In this document: positions 5,656-29,607 of the stretch, one piece after another
How the letters are laid out: each line of letters opens with the position of its first letter
How positions within the stretch are numbered: position 1 is the stretch's first letter
Assembly (NCBI GenBank): GCA_050255995.1
Contig: JBFWIM010000001.1
Coordinates: 709 to 64,708, forward strand
Length of the DNA stretch: 64,000 nucleotides
DNA from: Intestinibacillus sp.
Lineage (GTDB): Bacteria; Bacillota; Clostridia; Oscillospirales; Butyricicoccaceae
Direction of reading: 5' to 3'
Translations under genes and position numbers: made by a program
Notes under the pieces: model-generated
Seen by the model: the letters and a program-made list of their open reading frames with translations, nothing else
What the model was told of the DNA's origin: nothing
Database searches by the model: none

Positions 5656-5694
5656 CGAACATATGTTGCAATTCCCGCCGGCGTGTGGTATTAT
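5656..5694 (+). promoter_or_regulatory. recA promoter with LexA (SOS/DinR) box
   Basis: CGAAC-ATAT-GTTGC at 5656-5669 overlaps -35 TTGCAA (5666-5671); 17 bp spacer; TG-extended -10 TATTAT (5689-5694). Confidence 0.8.
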
Positions 5695-5804: not shown

Positions 5805-6962
5805 ATGGCAACCAAAAAGCACATTGAGCCGGTTGTGCCGGCTACCGATAAGAAAAAGGCGCTGGAGGCGGTGCTGGGGCAGATTGAAAAGAATTTTGGT
5901 AAGGGCGCCGTCATGCGGCTTGGCGAGAACGCCGGGATGCACGTGGACCATATCCCGACCGGATCCATCGGCCTGGACACTGCGCTTGGCATCGGCGGCC
6001 TGCCGCGCGGCCGTATCGTGGAGATTTACGGGCCGGAATCCTCCGGTAAGACCACGGTGGCGCTGCACGCGGTCGCGCAGGCGCAAAGGCTGGGCGGCGA
6101 AGCCGCATTCATCGACGCGGAGCACGCGCTCGACCCGATCTATGCCCGGGCGCTCGGCGTGGATATCGACAGTTTGCTGGTCTCGCAGCCGGATACCGGC
6201 GAGCAGGGGCTTGAGATTGCGGAAGCGCTCGTGCGCTCCGGCGCGGTCGATATTGTCGTCGTCGACTCGGTCGCGGCGCTCGTGCCGCGCGCCGAAATCG
6301 AGGGCGAGATGGGCGACTCCTTCGTCGGCCTGCACGCCCGCCTGATGAGCCAGGCGCTGCGCAAACTCGCCGGCTCCATCGCAAAGTCCCAGTGCGTCGT
6401 CATTTTTATCAACCAGCTGCGTGAAAAGGTCGGCGTGGTATACGGCAACCCCGAAGTTACGACGGGCGGCCGCGCGCTCAAGTTCTACGCCTCTGTGCGC
6501 ATCGACGTGCGCCGCACGGAGCACCTCAAAAACGGTACCGAGCTGATCGGCAGCCATACGCGCTGCAAAGTGGTCAAAAACAAGGTTGCGCCGCCGTTTA
6601 AGGAGGCCGAATTCGACATTATGTACGGCGAGGGCATTTCCTTCACCGGCGAGCTGGTCGATCTCGGCGTGAAATACAGTCTGGTCCAGAAGTCCGGCGC
6701 GTGGTTCTCCATGGGCGAAACGCGGCTCGGACAGGGGCGCGACGCGGCCAAGCAGTACTTTAAGGATCATCCGGAGATCGGGGAAAAGCTCCACCTTGAG
6801 ATTCTCGAAGCCATCCAGACGGAGCAGGCGGAACAGCGCAGCACGATGAAGGCTGCGAAGCCCGCAGGTACTCCGGCGGCAGTGCCCGTCGCCAAGGCCG
6901 CGCCGGCCTCTTCGGCCAAGGCGGTCTCCATCGACGCGGACGATTTTGACGATGTGGAATAA
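5805..6962 (+). CDS. recA: Recombinase RecA
   Basis: GGAGG RBS; GPESSGKTT Walker A; [11 protein letters not shown]; [10 protein letters not shown]. Confidence 0.99.
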
Positions 6963-24846: not shown

Positions 24847-25180
24847 TGTCCACCCCTCCGAAAAGTACAGTTTGTATCCGGTCGCGGTAATCCCGCCAGT
24901 CAATCCGGTACTTGGTCAGCTGTGTGCCGCCGAGCGGGGTCAGGCGATAATACCGCCGGTTGCGGCCGGCGCACTCCCGGCTGTAAGCCGTCAGGTAACC
25001 ATCCTTCAGCAGCCGGCGAAGAACGGGGTACAGCGAGGTTTCGGAAATCTCAATGACCTGCCGCAGGTCCTGCGTGATCTTGTACCCGTAGGCGCCCTCG
25101 CTGCCGGTCTGTGAGACGACCGACAGCACCAGGGCGTCAAGCAGTGATGCGCCAAAGCCGAAAGCCGCCAAACGTCTCAT
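24839..25180 (-). CDS. PadR-family transcriptional regulator
   Basis: LDALVLS, YGYKIT, ETSLYPVLRRL, GRNRRYYRLT. Confidence 0.92.
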   Translation of the reverse strand: MRRLAAFGFGASLLDALVLSVVSQTGSEGAYGYKITQDLRQVIEISETSLYPVLRRLLKDGYLTAYSRECAGRNRRYYRLTPLGGTQLTKYRIDWRDYRDRIQTVLFGGVDNE

Positions 25181-25308
25181 CCCTTTCTTTGTCTTCTTGC
25201 CAATATTATATGCAGAATAATATTGGCTGTCAAGCACTTCAGAAAAGATTTACAATTCCGCAATACATGAGACAACGCTATTCTCTGCACCCCTGTATCC
25301 GGCTATGC

Positions 25309-25351
25309 AAAACCGCCGGCCTGTCCACAGCCTGTGGATAAACCGGCGGTT
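25309..25351 (-). terminator. Hairpin/terminator after the tail-fibre-like gene, containing DnaA-box-like 9-mers
   Basis: Minus strand CCGCCGG-TTTATCCACAGGCTGTGGACAGG-CCGGCGG-TTTT. Confidence 0.7.
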
Positions 25352-25357
25352 CCACGA

Positions 25358-25996
25358 TTAACGGAATATGATGTAAAAATAGGGAATGTTGTTTGAATTG
25401 GTGTACAGGTACTGGCTGGAAACGTAAGTGACCTGAAAACCGTTTTCAACAACTGACAACCCAATTTTTGTGGGATCGTTTGCGATGTACTGGGGTTTGT
25501 TTGGCAGTGCGATACCGCCGTAGCAATAGTAGTTGCCGTTGCTGACATAGGTTGTGGCGCCGGAAACGCCGGTCAGCAGCACGGCCTTGGGCTGATACCC
25601 GAGATCGATGACGCGGTTTGTCGTGCCGTCGCCCGTGTAGGTGCCGATCTGCACCACCGCGCAGGACGCAACCTGGGTGAGCAGCGCGGCGTTATCCTGT
25701 TCCCGTGCGGCTGTCTCTGCCGCAAGTGCGGACTGATCGGCCTTGGCGTTCAGCTTTTCGGCGAGCGGCTGATCGAGCATGCTCTCGTGGATCGTGCCGC
25801 CGTAGGTCTGCGCGACGATCCCCTCGACCTTCGCGTCCAGCGCCGCGGCGTCATCCGCCAGGCCGTTGACCGAAAGCCGCAGAGCCTCGGCGTTGCCGTC
25901 AAAATATTGTTTCAGCTCCTCCGCTGAAAGCTGCGGCACATCGGCCAGCGCTGTAATCGGCGATGGAAGCGTTGTAAGACGGCGTTCTGTGAACAA
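25358..25996 (-). CDS. Orphan phage tail-fibre/receptor-binding-like protein (212 aa, TTG start)
   Basis: AAGGAGG (26011-26005) 8 nt before TTG 25996; N-terminal ITALADVPQLSAEELKQYFD; coiled-coil middle; C-terminal GTYTGDG..RVIDLGYQPKAV...YFYIIFR resembling phage fibre tip domains (by eye). Confidence 0.65.
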   Translation of the reverse strand: MFTERRLTTLPSPITALADVPQLSAEELKQYFDGNAEALRLSVNGLADDAAALDAKVEGIVAQTYGGTIHESMLDQPLAEKLNAKADQSALAAETAAREQDNAALLTQVASCAVVQIGTYTGDGTTNRVIDLGYQPKAVLLTGVSGATTYVSNGNYYCYGGIALPNKPQYIANDPTKIGLSVVENGFQVTYVSSQYLYTNSNNIPYFYIIFR

Positions 25997-26051
25997 TGGC
26001 TGTTCCTCCTTCATAAAATAGATACGAGTTACCGGACAAAGCGTGGTTTCT

Positions 26052-26080
26052 ATAATACGAACAAAGGTTCCTGTTGTCAA
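26052..26080 (-). promoter_or_regulatory. Sigma-A promoter with LexA box in the spacer
   Basis: Minus strand TTGACA, 17 bp, TATTAT; plus-strand CGAAC-AAAG-GTTCC at 26058-26071. Confidence 0.75.
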
Positions 26081-26225
26081 GTACCGTTTTGGTTTGGGAC
26101 AATACGACCCGCCACAAACATAAGGCAAGGGCGTTAGATTGAACGCCCTTGCATTGCAAATTTTTATCGCATTTGCAGAAGTCTGTCAAGACGGAGGGAC
26201 GCATCTGCACGTCCCCTATGGTGGT

Positions 26226-26627
26226 TCAGCGCCTGCAGCTTGGGCGGCCCGCATGGCTGTGCGCGCTACCGCGCCGCGCCGTGCCCGTTCTCTGATGGTG
26301 TGTGCACAGGGTATCCGGATCGCATTGCAGCGTACCTGCAAGCAGTGCGTCAACCTGCGCATCCGCCTCGCCCGACGCGCCCGGATAGAACGTGATGCCC
26401 GCGTCGCGCAGCGCGGCTCTTGCACCGCCGCCGATGCCGCCGCAGATCAGGGTATCCACCCCATGTGCACGCAGAAAGCCTGCGAGCGCGCCGTGCCTGC
26501 TGCCGTTGACCGGCACAATATGGCTCGCGTCCGCCAGGTCATTCTGCACTTCGTAAATTTTAAACTGTTCGGTGCTTCCAAAATGCTGAAACACTTGGCC
26601 GTTGTCATAGGTGACTGCGATTTTCAT
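26226..26627 (-). CDS. NifB/NifX-family (FeMo-cofactor-binding-like) protein
   Basis: MKIAVT...VFQHFG..EQFKIYE; LICGGIGGGA; C-terminal Cys/His. Confidence 0.88.
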   Translation of the reverse strand: MKIAVTYDNGQVFQHFGSTEQFKIYEVQNDLADASHIVPVNGSRHGALAGFLRAHGVDTLICGGIGGGARAALRDAGITFYPGASGEADAQVDALLAGTLQCDPDTLCTHHQRTGTARRGSAHSHAGRPSCRR

Positions 26628-26966
26628 GTGTTTTCCTCCGTGTCCGTATTGCTGTGTGACGGTTGCAGCGCTGCCGGGGCATACCGGAAAGCGCCGGCGC
26701 GCACGCGCCTGCATTTCCAAGGCGCGGTACATGGCAATACTGTATGCGCTACGGGGCAAAAAAATGTTTTGCCGGTACATAGCGCGCGGGATTCCGCCCC
26801 TCCTCCGAAAATTGTCGACTGCCGGAACTTTTTGGTTCCCATTTTGTTCATAGCTATGCTATAATAGGGGGCAGACAGGGGGCGCTGCACTGCGGCGACC
26901 CGCCGCGATGCAAAAGAATGCTCCGGAAAACAAATCAGCCGCCCGGCGGGCGATGGAGGGGAAACT

Positions 26967-27383
26967 ATGAAAAAGTTCTTACAGGAGTTCAGGGATTTCG
27001 CCCTGCGCGGCAACGTGATGGATCTGGCCGTCGGCGTCATCATCGGCGCGGCGTTTCAGGCGATTGTCAAGTCGCTGACTGACGACATCATTTCTCCGGT
27101 TCTCGGCCTGTTCACCGGAAAGAATTTCAGTGATCTCGCAGTGGATGCGTTCGGCGCGACCATCCGTTACGGCGCGTTTATTACGGCGGTCATCAATTTT
27201 TTGATTATGGCGTTTCTGGTCTTCCTGCTGGTGAAGGGCATGAACCGTCTGGCGACGCTTGGCCGCCGCAAGACGGAGGCGGCGCCCGCTGCCCCCACGA
27301 CCAAGGTCTGCCCCTACTGCCGCAGTGAAATCGACATCGCGGCGACCCGCTGCCCGCACTGCACCTCCCAGCTGGAGGAATGA
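26967..27383 (+). CDS. mscL: Large-conductance mechanosensitive channel with C-terminal zinc ribbon
   Basis: [21 protein letters not shown]; CPYC...CPHC tail. Confidence 0.95.
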
Positions 27384-27414
27384 GCGGCGCGGTAAAAATT
27401 TAATTCTGCAGGAC

Positions 27415-27452
27415 AAAGGCCCGCTTCGTCTGAAGACGAAGCGGGCCTTTTT
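27415..27452. terminator. Bidirectional terminator
   Basis: AAAGGCCCGCTTCGTCT-GA-AGACGAAGCGGGCCTTTTT. Confidence 0.85.
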
Positions 27453-27456
27453 TGCG

Positions 27457-27768
27457 TCAACCGTCGAACGGCAGCGGCTGGCACGCGAGATTATAGGCGA
27501 GCAAACGGCGCAGCCGGGTCTTTGCACGTTGCAAATGGCGGCATACCGCGGAGGGCGACACCCCCCAGCGCACGGCAATCTGCCGCTGGGACAGTCCCTC
27601 CAGATAATGCAGGCAAAGCGCTTCGTGCTGGCGTGCGGTCAGTTCGTCCTGCATTGCCCGGAAAAAGGCTGTCCGGAAGGCGGCGCGCCAGGCCGAATTG
27701 TCGCCTGCGGCGGACGCCTCATAGCGCAGCAGCGCCTCGCGCTCAAGAGCAGCGTCCGACAGCGCCAT
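27457..27768 (-). CDS. Sigma-70 region-4-only helix-turn-helix protein
   Basis: ELTARQHEALCLHYLEGLSQRQIAVRWGVSPSAVCRHLQRAKTRLR; no region 2; start overlaps the upstream ORF. Confidence 0.85.
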   Translation of the reverse strand: MALSDAALEREALLRYEASAAGDNSAWRAAFRTAFFRAMQDELTARQHEALCLHYLEGLSQRQIAVRWGVSPSAVCRHLQRAKTRLRRLLAYNLACQPLPFDG

Positions 27769-27979
27769 GGCTTTCCCTCTGGTCGTAATAGTGCTGCATG
27801 TCGTAAGCGGCACGGCGGCTTTCGCCCAGCATCCCGTAGAGCGTGCCGATGCGCTTTTTCAGCCTGCGGCGCAGCTCCAGCTGACGGGTGTTCTGCAGCC
27901 TGCAGCGCAGCTGGATGATGCGCAACTCAATCAGCGCGCCATTGACGCGGTATTCCTGCGCCATCTGTTGTAAAGTCAT
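27743..27979 (-). CDS. Hypothetical 78-aa basic helical protein
   Basis: AAGGAGG 7 nt before ATG 27979; overlaps the region-4 gene by 26 bp. Confidence 0.75.
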   Translation of the reverse strand: MTLQQMAQEYRVNGALIELRIIQLRCRLQNTRQLELRRRLKKRIGTLYGMLGESRRAAYDMQHYYDQRESHGAVGRCS

Positions 27980-27999
27980 GCAAATACCTCCTTGCAGTT

Positions 28000-28048
28000 A
28001 GAACGGATGTTTGAATATAATAATAACATCAAACGTATGTTCCGTCAA
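28000..28048 (-). promoter_or_regulatory. Sigma-A promoter with two LexA boxes
   Basis: Minus strand TTGACG, 17 bp, TATTAT (28048-28020); boxes AGAAC-GGAT-GTTTG (28000-28013) and CAAAC-GTAT-GTTCC (28030-28043). Confidence 0.8.
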
Positions 28049-28099
28049 GTAAAAAAAGAAAGCCCCCGCACCGCCAGGGTACGGGGGAACAAAAGCGCT

Positions 28100-29473
28100 T
28101 TATGTACGTTCGATCAGCGGGACATACTGCTTGGGCTTGTGACGCATCGGCTTATAAGCCGGACGAATAATTTTGCCGCCGAGGACGAGCTCCTCCATGC
28201 GGTGCGCCATCCAGCCCACAATGCGCGCCGTGGCAAACAGCGGGGTGAACATTTCGCGCGGGATGCCGAGCATGGTATATACCAGACCGGAATACAGGTC
28301 GACGTTGGCGCAGATGGTTTTCACGCCCTCGCCCCGGATTTCCGCAAACGCGCGGGGAGTGAGCTTTTCAACGAGCTCGACCAGATTGAACTCGCGGACG
28401 TAGCCGTTCTCCTGCGCAAGGGGACGCGCGCCTTCCTTGAGCGCGACGGCGCGCGGATCGCTCAGGGTGTAAACCGCGTGGCCCATGCCGTAGATCAGGC
28501 CGGAGCGGTCGGCCGCCTCGCGGCGCAGGATTTTGAGCAGGTACTGATACACCTCGTCTTCGTCCTCCCAGTCTTTGACATGCGCCTGAATATCGTCAAA
28601 CATGTTCATGACCTTGAGGTTTGCGCCGCCGTGGCGCGGACCCTTGAGCGCGCCGACCGCCGCGGCAATCGCGGAATAGGTGTCGGTACCGGAGGAGGAC
28701 GAAACGCGCGCGGCAAACGCCGAGTTGTTGCCGCCGCCGTGCTCGGCATGGATCACCAGGCAGCGGTCGAGCAGGTACGCCTCCTGCATGGTGTACTGGC
28801 CGTCCGGACGGATGAGCGTAAGAATGTTTTCCGCTGTGGACAGATTCTTGTCCGGCAGGTGCAGGTGCATGCTTGCGTTATCAAAATAGCGGCGCTTGAC
28901 CTGATAGGCGTGCGAGATGATGATCGGGAAGCGGGAGATGAGCCCAATGCCCTGGCGCATGACGTTCTCAATTGTGGTGTCGTCCGGGTTGGGGTCGTAA
29001 GAATAGAGCGAGAGCGTAGCGCTCGCGAGCTTGTTCATGATGTCGCGGCTGGGCGCGCGCATTAGCACGTCCTCGGTGAAATTGTCGGGCAGGTTGCGGG
29101 AATCCGCAATGGCGGTTTCAAACGCCTCAAGCTCCGCCGGACTGGGCAGCGCGCCGCACATCAGCAGGTAGCCGACCTCGCTGAAGCCGAAACGGTTTTC
29201 GCGTTCAAACCCGTCCAGAAGATCGTACAGGTTAATGCCGCGATAGGTCAGGCGGCCTTCGATCGGTTCGCGTTCGCCCTCGTTGACAATATAGCCGTGC
29301 ACGTTGCTGACACGGGTCACACCCGCGAGCACGCCGGTGCCGTCCGCATTGCGCAGGCCGCGCTTAATACCGTAACGGCCGAACAGCTCAGGATCCACCT
29401 GGGAATTTTCCCGGAAGTGGCCGCATAGGTTGTCTATGAGCTTCGGATCCATGTGCTTCATGATTTCCTGCAT
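28100..29473 (-). CDS. gltA: Citrate synthase family protein
   Basis: HAEHGGGNNS, HGGAN, GMGHAVY, NVDLYSG. Confidence 0.92.
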   Translation of the reverse strand: MQEIMKHMDPKLIDNLCGHFRENSQVDPELFGRYGIKRGLRNADGTGVLAGVTRVSNVHGYIVNEGEREPIEGRLTYRGINLYDLLDGFERENRFGFSEVGYLLMCGALPSPAELEAFETAIADSRNLPDNFTEDVLMRAPSRDIMNKLASATLSLYSYDPNPDDTTIENVMRQGIGLISRFPIIISHAYQVKRRYFDNASMHLHLPDKNLSTAENILTLIRPDGQYTMQEAYLLDRCLVIHAEHGGGNNSAFAARVSSSSGTDTYSAIAAAVGALKGPRHGGANLKVMNMFDDIQAHVKDWEDEDEVYQYLLKILRREAADRSGLIYGMGHAVYTLSDPRAVALKEGARPLAQENGYVREFNLVELVEKLTPRAFAEIRGEGVKTICANVDLYSGLVYTMLGIPREMFTPLFATARIVGWMAHRMEELVLGGKIIRPAYKPMRHKPKQYVPLIERT

Positions 29474-29607
29474 GCTTCATTACTCCTTCAGAGATTAAAA
29501 AGTCGGTGTAAAACCGATAATGAATTTATTTTACTCCTATCTTGCATATCTGTCAATTTGTGAATTGTATAAAAATTTCCGGCCGTAGGCCGCAGGAGGA
29601 AGAAAAA

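Follow-up and report, generated by a model that had tools for sequence, protein, structure and literature searches.

A putative LexA-repressed regulator pair of phage-type origin, built from a helical-hairpin protein and a stand-alone sigma region 4, in an Intestinibacillus-like lineage

In a stretch of 64 kb from the genome of Intestinibacillus sp. (assembly GCA_050255995.1, contig JBFWIM010000001.1; hereafter the window, whose coordinates are used throughout), two small overlapping genes are flanked by the genes for citrate synthase and the channel protein MscL, behind a promoter with two putative LexA boxes. The upstream gene, called A here, encodes a protein of 78 amino acids (aa) and the downstream gene, B, one of 103 aa that resembles region 4 of sigma-70; loci of relatives are given as L-numbers. 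The question raised by this locus is what such a pair would do under SOS control. A preliminary description had read it as a second-tier SOS transcription factor, either a bipartite sigma or a phage-type activator. We consider that the chances are somewhat better than even for the whole package of a domesticated, phage-derived and directly LexA-repressed regulator pair that acts on transcription.

The A-B operon has a sigma-A-type promoter with 10 of 12 consensus matches (TTGACG-17-TGnTATTAT, spacer of 17 nt), and the TTGAC of its -35 element is invariant across four aligned relatives. The GAAC-N4-GTTT 12-mers at 28031-28042 and 28001-28012 are the sole two in the window; the centres of the two boxes lie 30 bp apart, and jointly they form a larger imperfect palindrome. 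The looser motif RAAC-N4-GTTY shows no excess in the window (4 sites observed, 3.2 expected), and a pair of such sites no more than 45 bp apart occurred in one of 400 Markov-simulated windows. Moreover, three of the four sites fall within sigma-A-type promoters. When GAAC-N4-GTTC was searched with at most one mismatch, 18 sites were found in the window and four of them were located in promoter regions, namely the recA box, the two A-B boxes and a perfect box at 26059-26070. The recA gene (5806-6962, ATG at 5806) provides an internal positive control for the LexA motif, since its promoter carries a box at 5657-5668 (cGAACATATGTTGc, 17 nt upstream of TGgTATTAT) that shares its core with box 1 of A-B (GAACATACGTTT). 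Furthermore, the lexA and recA operators of Clostridioides difficile have been reported as GAAC-N4-GTTT (PMC4234289), and the A-B operator matches the Firmicutes/Clostridia SOS form GAAC-N4-GTT(C/T), overlapping the core promoter.

In aligned relatives the half-sites are kept in the orthologous promoters, while the four spacer bases and the flanks vary. At 72-73% protein identity to the window, box 1 reads AAACGTTCGTTC in L001, AAACGCCCGTTC in L010 and GAACATACGTAC in L004, and box 2 reads AAACAAGTGTTC in both L001 and L010 and AAACATATGTTC in L004. More distantly, L015 (51-52% identity) has one perfect box, CGAACAAATGTTCG, directly after its -10, and box conservation is weak in L018 (29-30% identity), with TATATTCAAACATTTGTTCG against TATATTCAAACATCCGTTCT in the window. 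Since the close spacing is rare by chance, the recA control matches and the half-sites are conserved in orthologous promoters, the boxes can be regarded as probable LexA operators, and direct LexA repression of A-B is well supported in silico and, in our judgement, highly probable. In this respect, the preliminary description holds up in its two boxes, its strong ribosome-binding site and its 26-bp gene overlap, all of which lie at the coordinates that it gave (Table 1), as well as in its claim of direct SOS control, which is supported in silico by box placement, by the recA box and by conservation, with boxes in L001/L010, L004, L015 and L018.

The same overlap and the same called start are present in relative L004, and translation of the two genes is probably coupled, because B overlaps A by 26 bp. 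A longer form of B from a GTG at 27813 (118 aa) was considered and dropped in favour of the ATG at 27768, since the relatives begin there. One public run, possibly of RNA, gave low-depth contigs only, which cover part of the operon (27432-27852).

Region 4 is the part of a sigma factor that recognises DNA of the -35 type and binds to the flap of RNA polymerase. Protein B matches Sigma70_r4_2 (Pfam, E 1.3e-12) and Sigma70_r4; neither the 18 Pfam families matched at E<=1 nor NCBIfam include a Sigma70_r2 match, and B thus has no region 2, as anticipated by the preliminary description, which had seen in it only the -35-binding helix-turn-helix (HTH). Indeed, B aligns only to positions 97-164 of 165 in TIGR02937, the last 68 positions of the extracytoplasmic function (ECF) model, and among its 25 best NCBIfam matches this sigma70-ECF superfamily model alone passes the cut-off. 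The AlphaFold model (predicted local distance difference test, pLDDT, 85) consists of five helices, with the HTH of regions 4.1 and 4.2 and a short N-terminal helix, and superposes on region 4 of Mycobacterium tuberculosis SigL, Escherichia coli SigE and AlgU (template-modelling score about 0.6, root-mean-square deviation about 2 Å). A common pattern, ELTxRQxExLxLxY..G.S..EIA...G...S.VSR.L.RA..RL...LRY, runs through ten B-type partners and represents regions 4.1 and 4.2. Weak matches of B were also obtained to the Xpf-type model PRK06930 and to phrog_36 (E 0.0048); DUF1492 (PF07374) is not among its 18 Pfam matches at E<=1, and RinA/ArpU models are not among its 25 best NCBIfam matches.

Protein A belongs to a family that we regard as undescribed, because neither Pfam, NCBIfam nor PHROGs gives a family for the window protein, and 90 members scanned singly against PHROGs gave none either. 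By sensitive profile search (E<=1e-3), this family comprises at least 176 clusters at 50% identity, nearly all of 65-85 aa, with the consensus MTLxEMAxEYRxxAxxLxxRIxxLxxxL...RxRLxxRIxxLxxM..E.R.TA..LEHYYD and near-invariant residues Y10, R20, L24, L40, R43, L47, Y64 and Y65. A is modelled as a confident helical hairpin (pLDDT 91, helices 3-29 and 34-74) without a membrane segment, and the model suggests a core of leucines, an arginine pair across the helices (R20/R43) and, at the open end of the hairpin, a patch of aromatic residues (Y10/Y64/Y65). A fold search against PDB and BFVD returned nothing beyond generic antiparallel coiled coils. When the family profile was run against PDB sequences, low-complexity coiled-coil matches, such as GroEL and a beta-prime segment, were taken as noise. 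As a separate observation, the A homologues P0032, P0041, P0043, P0051, P0060 and P0067 (129-140 aa) carry a conserved basic, proline-rich C-terminal extension, KPKP...KR.RF..(S/T)GYG.P.PAA...VSG(L/I), which has no Pfam match.

The nature of A bears directly on the idea of a two-subunit sigma, in which A would give the function of region 2 (core binding and -10 melting) and B that of region 4, together replacing sigma-A. Such a factor is known in SigO-RsoA, which splits sigma-2 and sigma-4 over two polypeptides (PMC7826278). A-B is like SigO-RsoA only in being two small co-expressed polypeptides, whereas both halves of SigO-RsoA are recognisable sigma domains; RsoA carries a region 2.3-like segment, and A has no detectable region 2 and a different fold. 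The small size of the two co-translated proteins, one of them with region 4 only, would suit this model, RsoA being similarly small, and so would the conserved aromatic patch of A, which includes H63 beside Y10, Y64 and Y65. However, no Sigma70_r2 match of A was found in Pfam even at E<=1, no sigma factor appears among the 60 matches listed for the A-family profile against PDB sequences, and the modelled two-helix hairpin is unlike the multi-helix sigma-2 fold. Moreover, A was fused to a sigma or region-4 domain in none of 10 longer homologues scanned, and it also occurs beside terS, the gene of the small terminase subunit (TerS), without a region-4 partner. The split-sigma reading is weak, since nothing of region 2 can be recognised in A, and we consider it very improbable; the bipartite sigma of the preliminary description is therefore not upheld.

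The gene pair recurs as a cassette, defined here as a gene for a 65-85-aa hairpin protein (EY...R...L / R..L...HYY) followed by an overlapping or abutting gene for a region-4-only protein of about 80-115 aa. Ten distinct loci show this arrangement, with gene overlaps of 0-47 bp (the window, L004, L015, L007, L011, L018, L022, L023, L024 and L025), most of them among housekeeping genes and with either LexA boxes or a divergent cI/ImmR-type repressor. Chromosomal, LexA-boxed pairs are those of the window, L004 and L015, the last in a partly different context (SpoIID - A - B - rpsO). In L007-9, L011 and L018 the cassette forms a four-gene module, Peptidase_M78 (ImmA-like) - HTH_3 (cI/ImmR-like), divergent from A - B, and these modules lie in three unrelated housekeeping contexts; the promoters of L007 and L011 have no LexA boxes and carry other inverted repeats instead, e.g., ATCACAC-N5-GTGTGAT. 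The pair of L023 has a divergent cI-like repressor as well. Beyond what the preliminary description had noticed, A is thus a member of a sizeable unannotated family, and the cassette recurs widely and is elsewhere wired to cI/ImmR-ImmA, not to LexA.

Several cassettes adjoin transfer RNA genes, namely tRNA-Gln in L011 (3631-3704) and both tRNA-Tyr and tRNA-Thr in L022 (509-681) and in L024 (7719-7895), with no integrase remaining nearby, and these positions are consistent with arrival by site-specific integration. L024 is the 860-kb replicon of Vescimonas fastidiosa MM35, where RefSeq names the two products 'hypothetical protein' and 'sigma-70 family RNA polymerase sigma factor'; its cassette carries no LexA boxes. 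The record L025 (MT836668.1), labelled 'UNVERIFIED: Bacteriophage sp.', shares the A-B-YitT order of the Vescimonas chromid and looks like bacterial chromosomal DNA, not phage; judged by eye, its proteins include a YitT-like membrane protein, a two-component system, an ATP-binding cassette permease and a large metabolic enzyme. The closest named genome to the window lineage is Intestinibacillus massiliensis, which is represented, together with metagenomic twins, by L001 and L010, and the window sequence itself is present in landfill, solid-waste and wastewater metagenomes. As for sampling, the genome and metagenome scans yielded only 2 loci each and the phage and plasmid tblastn searches one match each; viral-contig scans with three queries returned nothing, and the alignments were too diverse for pattern scans.

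A small open reading frame for a Cys4 zinc ribbon is often located directly upstream of A, as in L025 (8940-9164, minus strand) and L023 (about 724-856). It lies downstream of A in L016 (3441-3689) and is fused to the N-terminus of A in P0080 and P0151. This distribution suggests a third, optional component of the cassette, which the window does not have.

One subfamily of A leads the packaging operon of phages. In contigs L012, L014 and L019 its gene comes first behind a terminator-like hairpin, directly before the genes of TerS and of the large terminase subunit (TerL). A sigma-like regulator of 132-134 aa, assigned to phrog_36 and with weak Sigma70_r4 and DUF1492 matches, is encoded upstream of A in L012 and L014. 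In addition, A was found with other small partners in a phage-like element (L013), three genes before a faint GP3_package-like gene, and inside an integrase-bearing element (L016). The A-B pair is very probably of phage-type origin, and the gene contexts indicate that the cassette derives from phages or integrative elements, where it lies either under a repressor that responds to damage or at the transition from early to late genes; in the Intestinibacillus-like lineage, host LexA appears to have taken over its control from the switch of the mobile element. Regarding the phage-type activator of the preliminary description, the looser idea of a phage-style late or positive regulator fits, since phage A opens the packaging operon beside terS with a sigma-like regulator upstream, while membership of the RinA/ArpU families fails, as no such model was reached. 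It was also considered whether a phrog_36/DUF1492-type regulator has been divided into A and B, and this was found unsupported (hhalign probability of 4.7% for the A family and 16% for the B family).

Some features of the phage loci deserve record in their own right. The terminator-like hairpin regions lie at about 7900-8000 in L012, about 7900-8000 in L014 and about 3940-4040 in L019, and a shared motif follows the hairpin upstream of A in L012 (CCTGAGCGGGATTTG) and L014 (CCTCGAGCGGGATATTTG); it is a candidate for a late promoter or for a site recognised by the phrog_36 regulator encoded upstream. In the related phage contigs L014 (7181-7808) and L019 (3235-3859), a HicA/HicB toxin-antitoxin pair has been inserted in opposite orientation just ahead of the A-terS late operon.

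The position of A before TerS in L012, L014 and L019, with a 38-bp overlap in L019, and its proximity to the GP3_package-like gene in L013 could also mean that A is a DNA-packaging accessory that works with the HTH of the small terminase, and that the cassette is a packaging relic or hijacker with B in the place of TerS, for instance to disturb or make use of DNA packaging by phages that are resident or enter the cell. We judge this improbable. B is a sigma region 4 with its HTH at the C-terminus, and no terminase was found among its 18 Pfam families or 25 best PHROGs at E<=1; A is paired with region-4 proteins in 10 loci versus 3 with TerS. Furthermore, the window operon does not lie at an early-to-late junction, flanked as it is by the genes for citrate synthase and MscL, and when 54 window proteins were scanned against Pfam, the 25 of 93 families listed were all housekeeping ones, with no terminase, packaging gene or phage cluster among them.

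The same phage loci have been weighed for an antagonist role, in which A would inhibit or modulate region-4 proteins in the manner of an anti-sigma factor or AsiA, and B would be a repressor or would compete for -35 sites or for the flap. AsiA, Rsd and FlgM are familiar examples of small helical proteins with region 4 as their target, tight translational coupling is typical of inhibitor-target pairs, and a phage A in the late operon, with the sigma-like regulator upstream, would give negative feedback. On the other hand, no likeness of A in sequence or fold to any anti-sigma family emerged from the Pfam, fold and PDB profile searches, A is kept where the adjacent B has been lost, and the order A before B is the reverse of the usual one, sigma then anti-sigma. 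An antagonist is thus, in our estimation, an unlikely explanation.

The pair could also be a decaying prophage remnant without present function. The phage origin, the loss of B in I. massiliensis and a second orphan phage-like gene nearby (described below) would agree with decay. Nevertheless, both open reading frames are intact, and the ratio of nonsynonymous to synonymous substitution rates (dN/dS), taken from relatives with unsaturated synonymous sites, is 0.22-0.47 for A and 0.14-0.25 for B. Since these values are well below 1, A and B are under purifying selection, and the pair appears not to be a dead remnant. Promoter, ribosome-binding site and LexA boxes are conserved over deep divergence, and many genomes carry orphan cassettes in housekeeping surroundings; consequently, we see hardly any chance that the pair is such a relic.

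A further candidate role is that of an SOS effector, either a toxin-antitoxin-like pair or a division or growth inhibitor A with B as its HTH controller. SOS-induced small inhibitors and toxins are common, SulA, YneA and TisB among them, and small overlapping genes under LexA would be in line with such a function; we know of no SOS division inhibitor of the window's clade. Against an effector, A has no membrane segment and no match in Pfam, NCBIfam or PHROGs, the three libraries searched, the home of its family is the late or packaging region of phages, and B resembles a polymerase-directed region 4 and not a typical antitoxin. This explanation seems to us quite improbable.

Returning to the preferred reading, a regulator pair that acts on transcription, the following course of events can be proposed. 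As long as cells are uninduced, the strong sigma-A promoter would be held off by one LexA dimer on its spacer and another on its start site. Upon DNA damage, RecA-stimulated cleavage of LexA would free the promoter, and a burst of A and B would be made from one short mRNA, in a fixed ratio probably set by translational coupling. The two proteins would then most likely form a complex around the free region 4 that acts on RNA polymerase or on -35-like sites of distant promoters and so redirects or activates transcription there, and this output would represent a second tier of the SOS response, akin to the late or positive control factors of phages. Such action would be in trans, since nothing phage-like lies downstream of the operon. 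LexA binding, induction by damage, complex formation by A and B and contact of this complex with RNA polymerase are inferences, and so is the sign of the effect, activation or repression; for the regulation of transcription by an A-B complex we put the chances at about even.

Some observations weigh against this reading. In I. massiliensis (L001, 4001-5680; L010, 5001-7277), an opposite-strand MatE gene abuts A and there is no B, and yet A, its ribosome-binding site and both LexA boxes are intact. In the phage contigs, A precedes or overlaps terS (in L019 by the 38 bp given above) rather than a region-4 gene. The persistence of A where no B adjoins it, in I. massiliensis as in the phage loci, argues for an activity of A itself, and its job may be independent of B. 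A region-4 domain alone cannot open promoters, and a repressor or a competitor of host sigma is equally possible. Finally, no target promoter or regulon could be proposed for A-B, which is still where the preliminary description had left it. With respect to the I. massiliensis genes, we also note that the C-terminus of A diverges after about residue 67, and that L010 contains an assembly duplication and runs of N.

A more specific version of the mechanism, which we offer as a rather unlikely one, is a 'sigma-4 swap', in which A would displace or capture region 4 of the primary sigma, or would dock B, and B would take the place on the flap. If true, the host sigma would still read the -10 element while B reads a new -35 element, a modular re-targeting of the holoenzyme in trans, used by widespread unannotated cassettes of gut- and waste-associated Clostridia and their phages and here recruited into the LexA regulon.

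The features of the locus are listed in Table 1. The terminator of the citrate synthase gene insulates the operon against read-through. At the other end, the hairpin between the convergent genes B and mscL is probably a two-way terminator, with a T-run that is strong for mscL and weak (TTTGT) for A-B. No RNA family was found by Rfam in 25000-29600; one sub-threshold match to a terminator-like small RNA model coincides with this hairpin. The MscL protein itself has a C-terminal CxxC...CxxC zinc-ribbon extension with sub-threshold zinc-ribbon Pfam matches (residues 108-137), which is unusual for MscL.

Table 1. Features of the A-B operon and its flanks in the window
Feature	Position	Strand	Description
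Citrate synthase gene	28100-29473		Flanks the A-B operon on its upstream side
Intrinsic terminator of the citrate synthase gene	28063-28087	-	Inverted repeat; 10-bp stem with 8 GC pairs, T-run
-35 hexamer	28043-28048	-	TTGACG; sigma-A-type promoter
LexA box 1	28030-28043		CAAACGTATGTTCC; minus strand GGAACATACGTTTG; in the spacer, directly after the -35
-10 hexamer	28020-28025	-	TATTAT with TG upstream (extended -10)
LexA box 2	28000-28013		AGAACGGATGTTTG; minus strand CAAACATCCGTTCT; over predicted +1 to about +14
Shine-Dalgarno sequence	27987-27993	-	AAGGAGG; 7 nt before the ATG of gene A (27979)
Gene A	27743-27979	-	78 aa; helical-hairpin protein
Gene B	27457-27768	-	103 aa; stand-alone sigma-70 region 4; ATG at 27768
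GC-rich hairpin between B and mscL	27418-27447		From reading of the sequence
mscL	26967-27383	+	Convergent with B

A third SOS-type promoter was detected 2 kb away on the minus strand (26046-26080; TTGACA-acagGAACctttGTTCg-TATTAT, 17-nt spacer), and its box at 26059-26070 is the only perfect GAAC-N4-GTTC of the window. It drives an orphan gene (25358-26014, minus strand) for a protein of about 211-218 aa without a Pfam family, whose N-terminus weakly matches a phage tail-fibre PHROG (E 2.9e-5); L004, the relative with 73% identity, lacks this gene. Judged on these sequences, the 3-kb stretch would hold two separate phage-derived, directly LexA-controlled units, with mscL and a DUF134/NifB-like pair between them.

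If the regulator pair is real, it would add a tier of transcription factors to the SOS response of the Oscillospiraceae, major and poorly studied anaerobes of gut and waste, for which, as far as we know, no such second-tier SOS regulator has been described. In some phages, the packaging operon begins with a member of the A family; elsewhere, the family is coupled to region-4 proteins that stand alone. To our knowledge, it is not settled how region-4-only phage regulators engage RNA polymerase, and a conserved partner such as A, which looks obligatory, would be a handle on this point. Moreover, the same cassette under LexA in one lineage and under cI/ImmR-ImmA elsewhere would illustrate how a host repressor takes over the switch of a mobile element.

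Among known systems, Xpf of PBSX, RinA, ArpU, LtrC and the DUF1492/phrog_36 proteins are small phage proteins with a C-terminal region-4-type HTH like that of B. Factors of the Xpf/RinA/ArpU type switch on the terS-led late operon after prophage induction, and phage A sits at that very junction. In contrast to these proteins and DUF1492, B lies below all family thresholds, belongs to a two-protein system and would be under direct LexA control with no phage repressor, and the window has no late operon to control. In Tn916, a divergent HTH_3 repressor (orf9) faces the sigma region-4-like orf7 and the small orf8, which are thought to be joint positive regulators. This layout parallels that of the cassette, although with the gene order reversed (sigma-like first), and the comparison is one of layout only. 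The damage-responsive ImmR/ImmA switches of ICEBs1 and of Firmicutes prophages also have a counterpart here, as the cassette is the first transcript divergent from HTH_3 and Peptidase_M78 in L007, L011 and L018; unlike these loci, the window lineage has no such repressor, and host LexA, with two boxes in the promoter, would act instead. The small phage protein gp7 of GIL01, which aids LexA binding at imperfect boxes (PMC4551915), was considered as a model for A, and nothing links the two.

The nearest functional precedent is SigN (ZpdN), encoded by plasmid pBS32 of Bacillus subtilis, whose main promoter is sigma-A dependent and LexA-repressed through an overlapping GAAC-type box (PMC6751061). 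As is proposed for A-B, SigN is a sigma-family protein of a mobile element that serves as a second tier of the DNA-damage response. Nevertheless, SigN is a single chain, weakly ECF-like, which works alone and activates its own gene (PMC6751061), whereas A-B combines region 4 only with a separate hairpin protein, is chromosomal and shows no autoregulatory promoter that we could see. In brief, sigma-like regulators of mobile elements under SOS control are a kind already known, and what is new here is one that is built from an unannotated hairpin family and a region-4-only protein.

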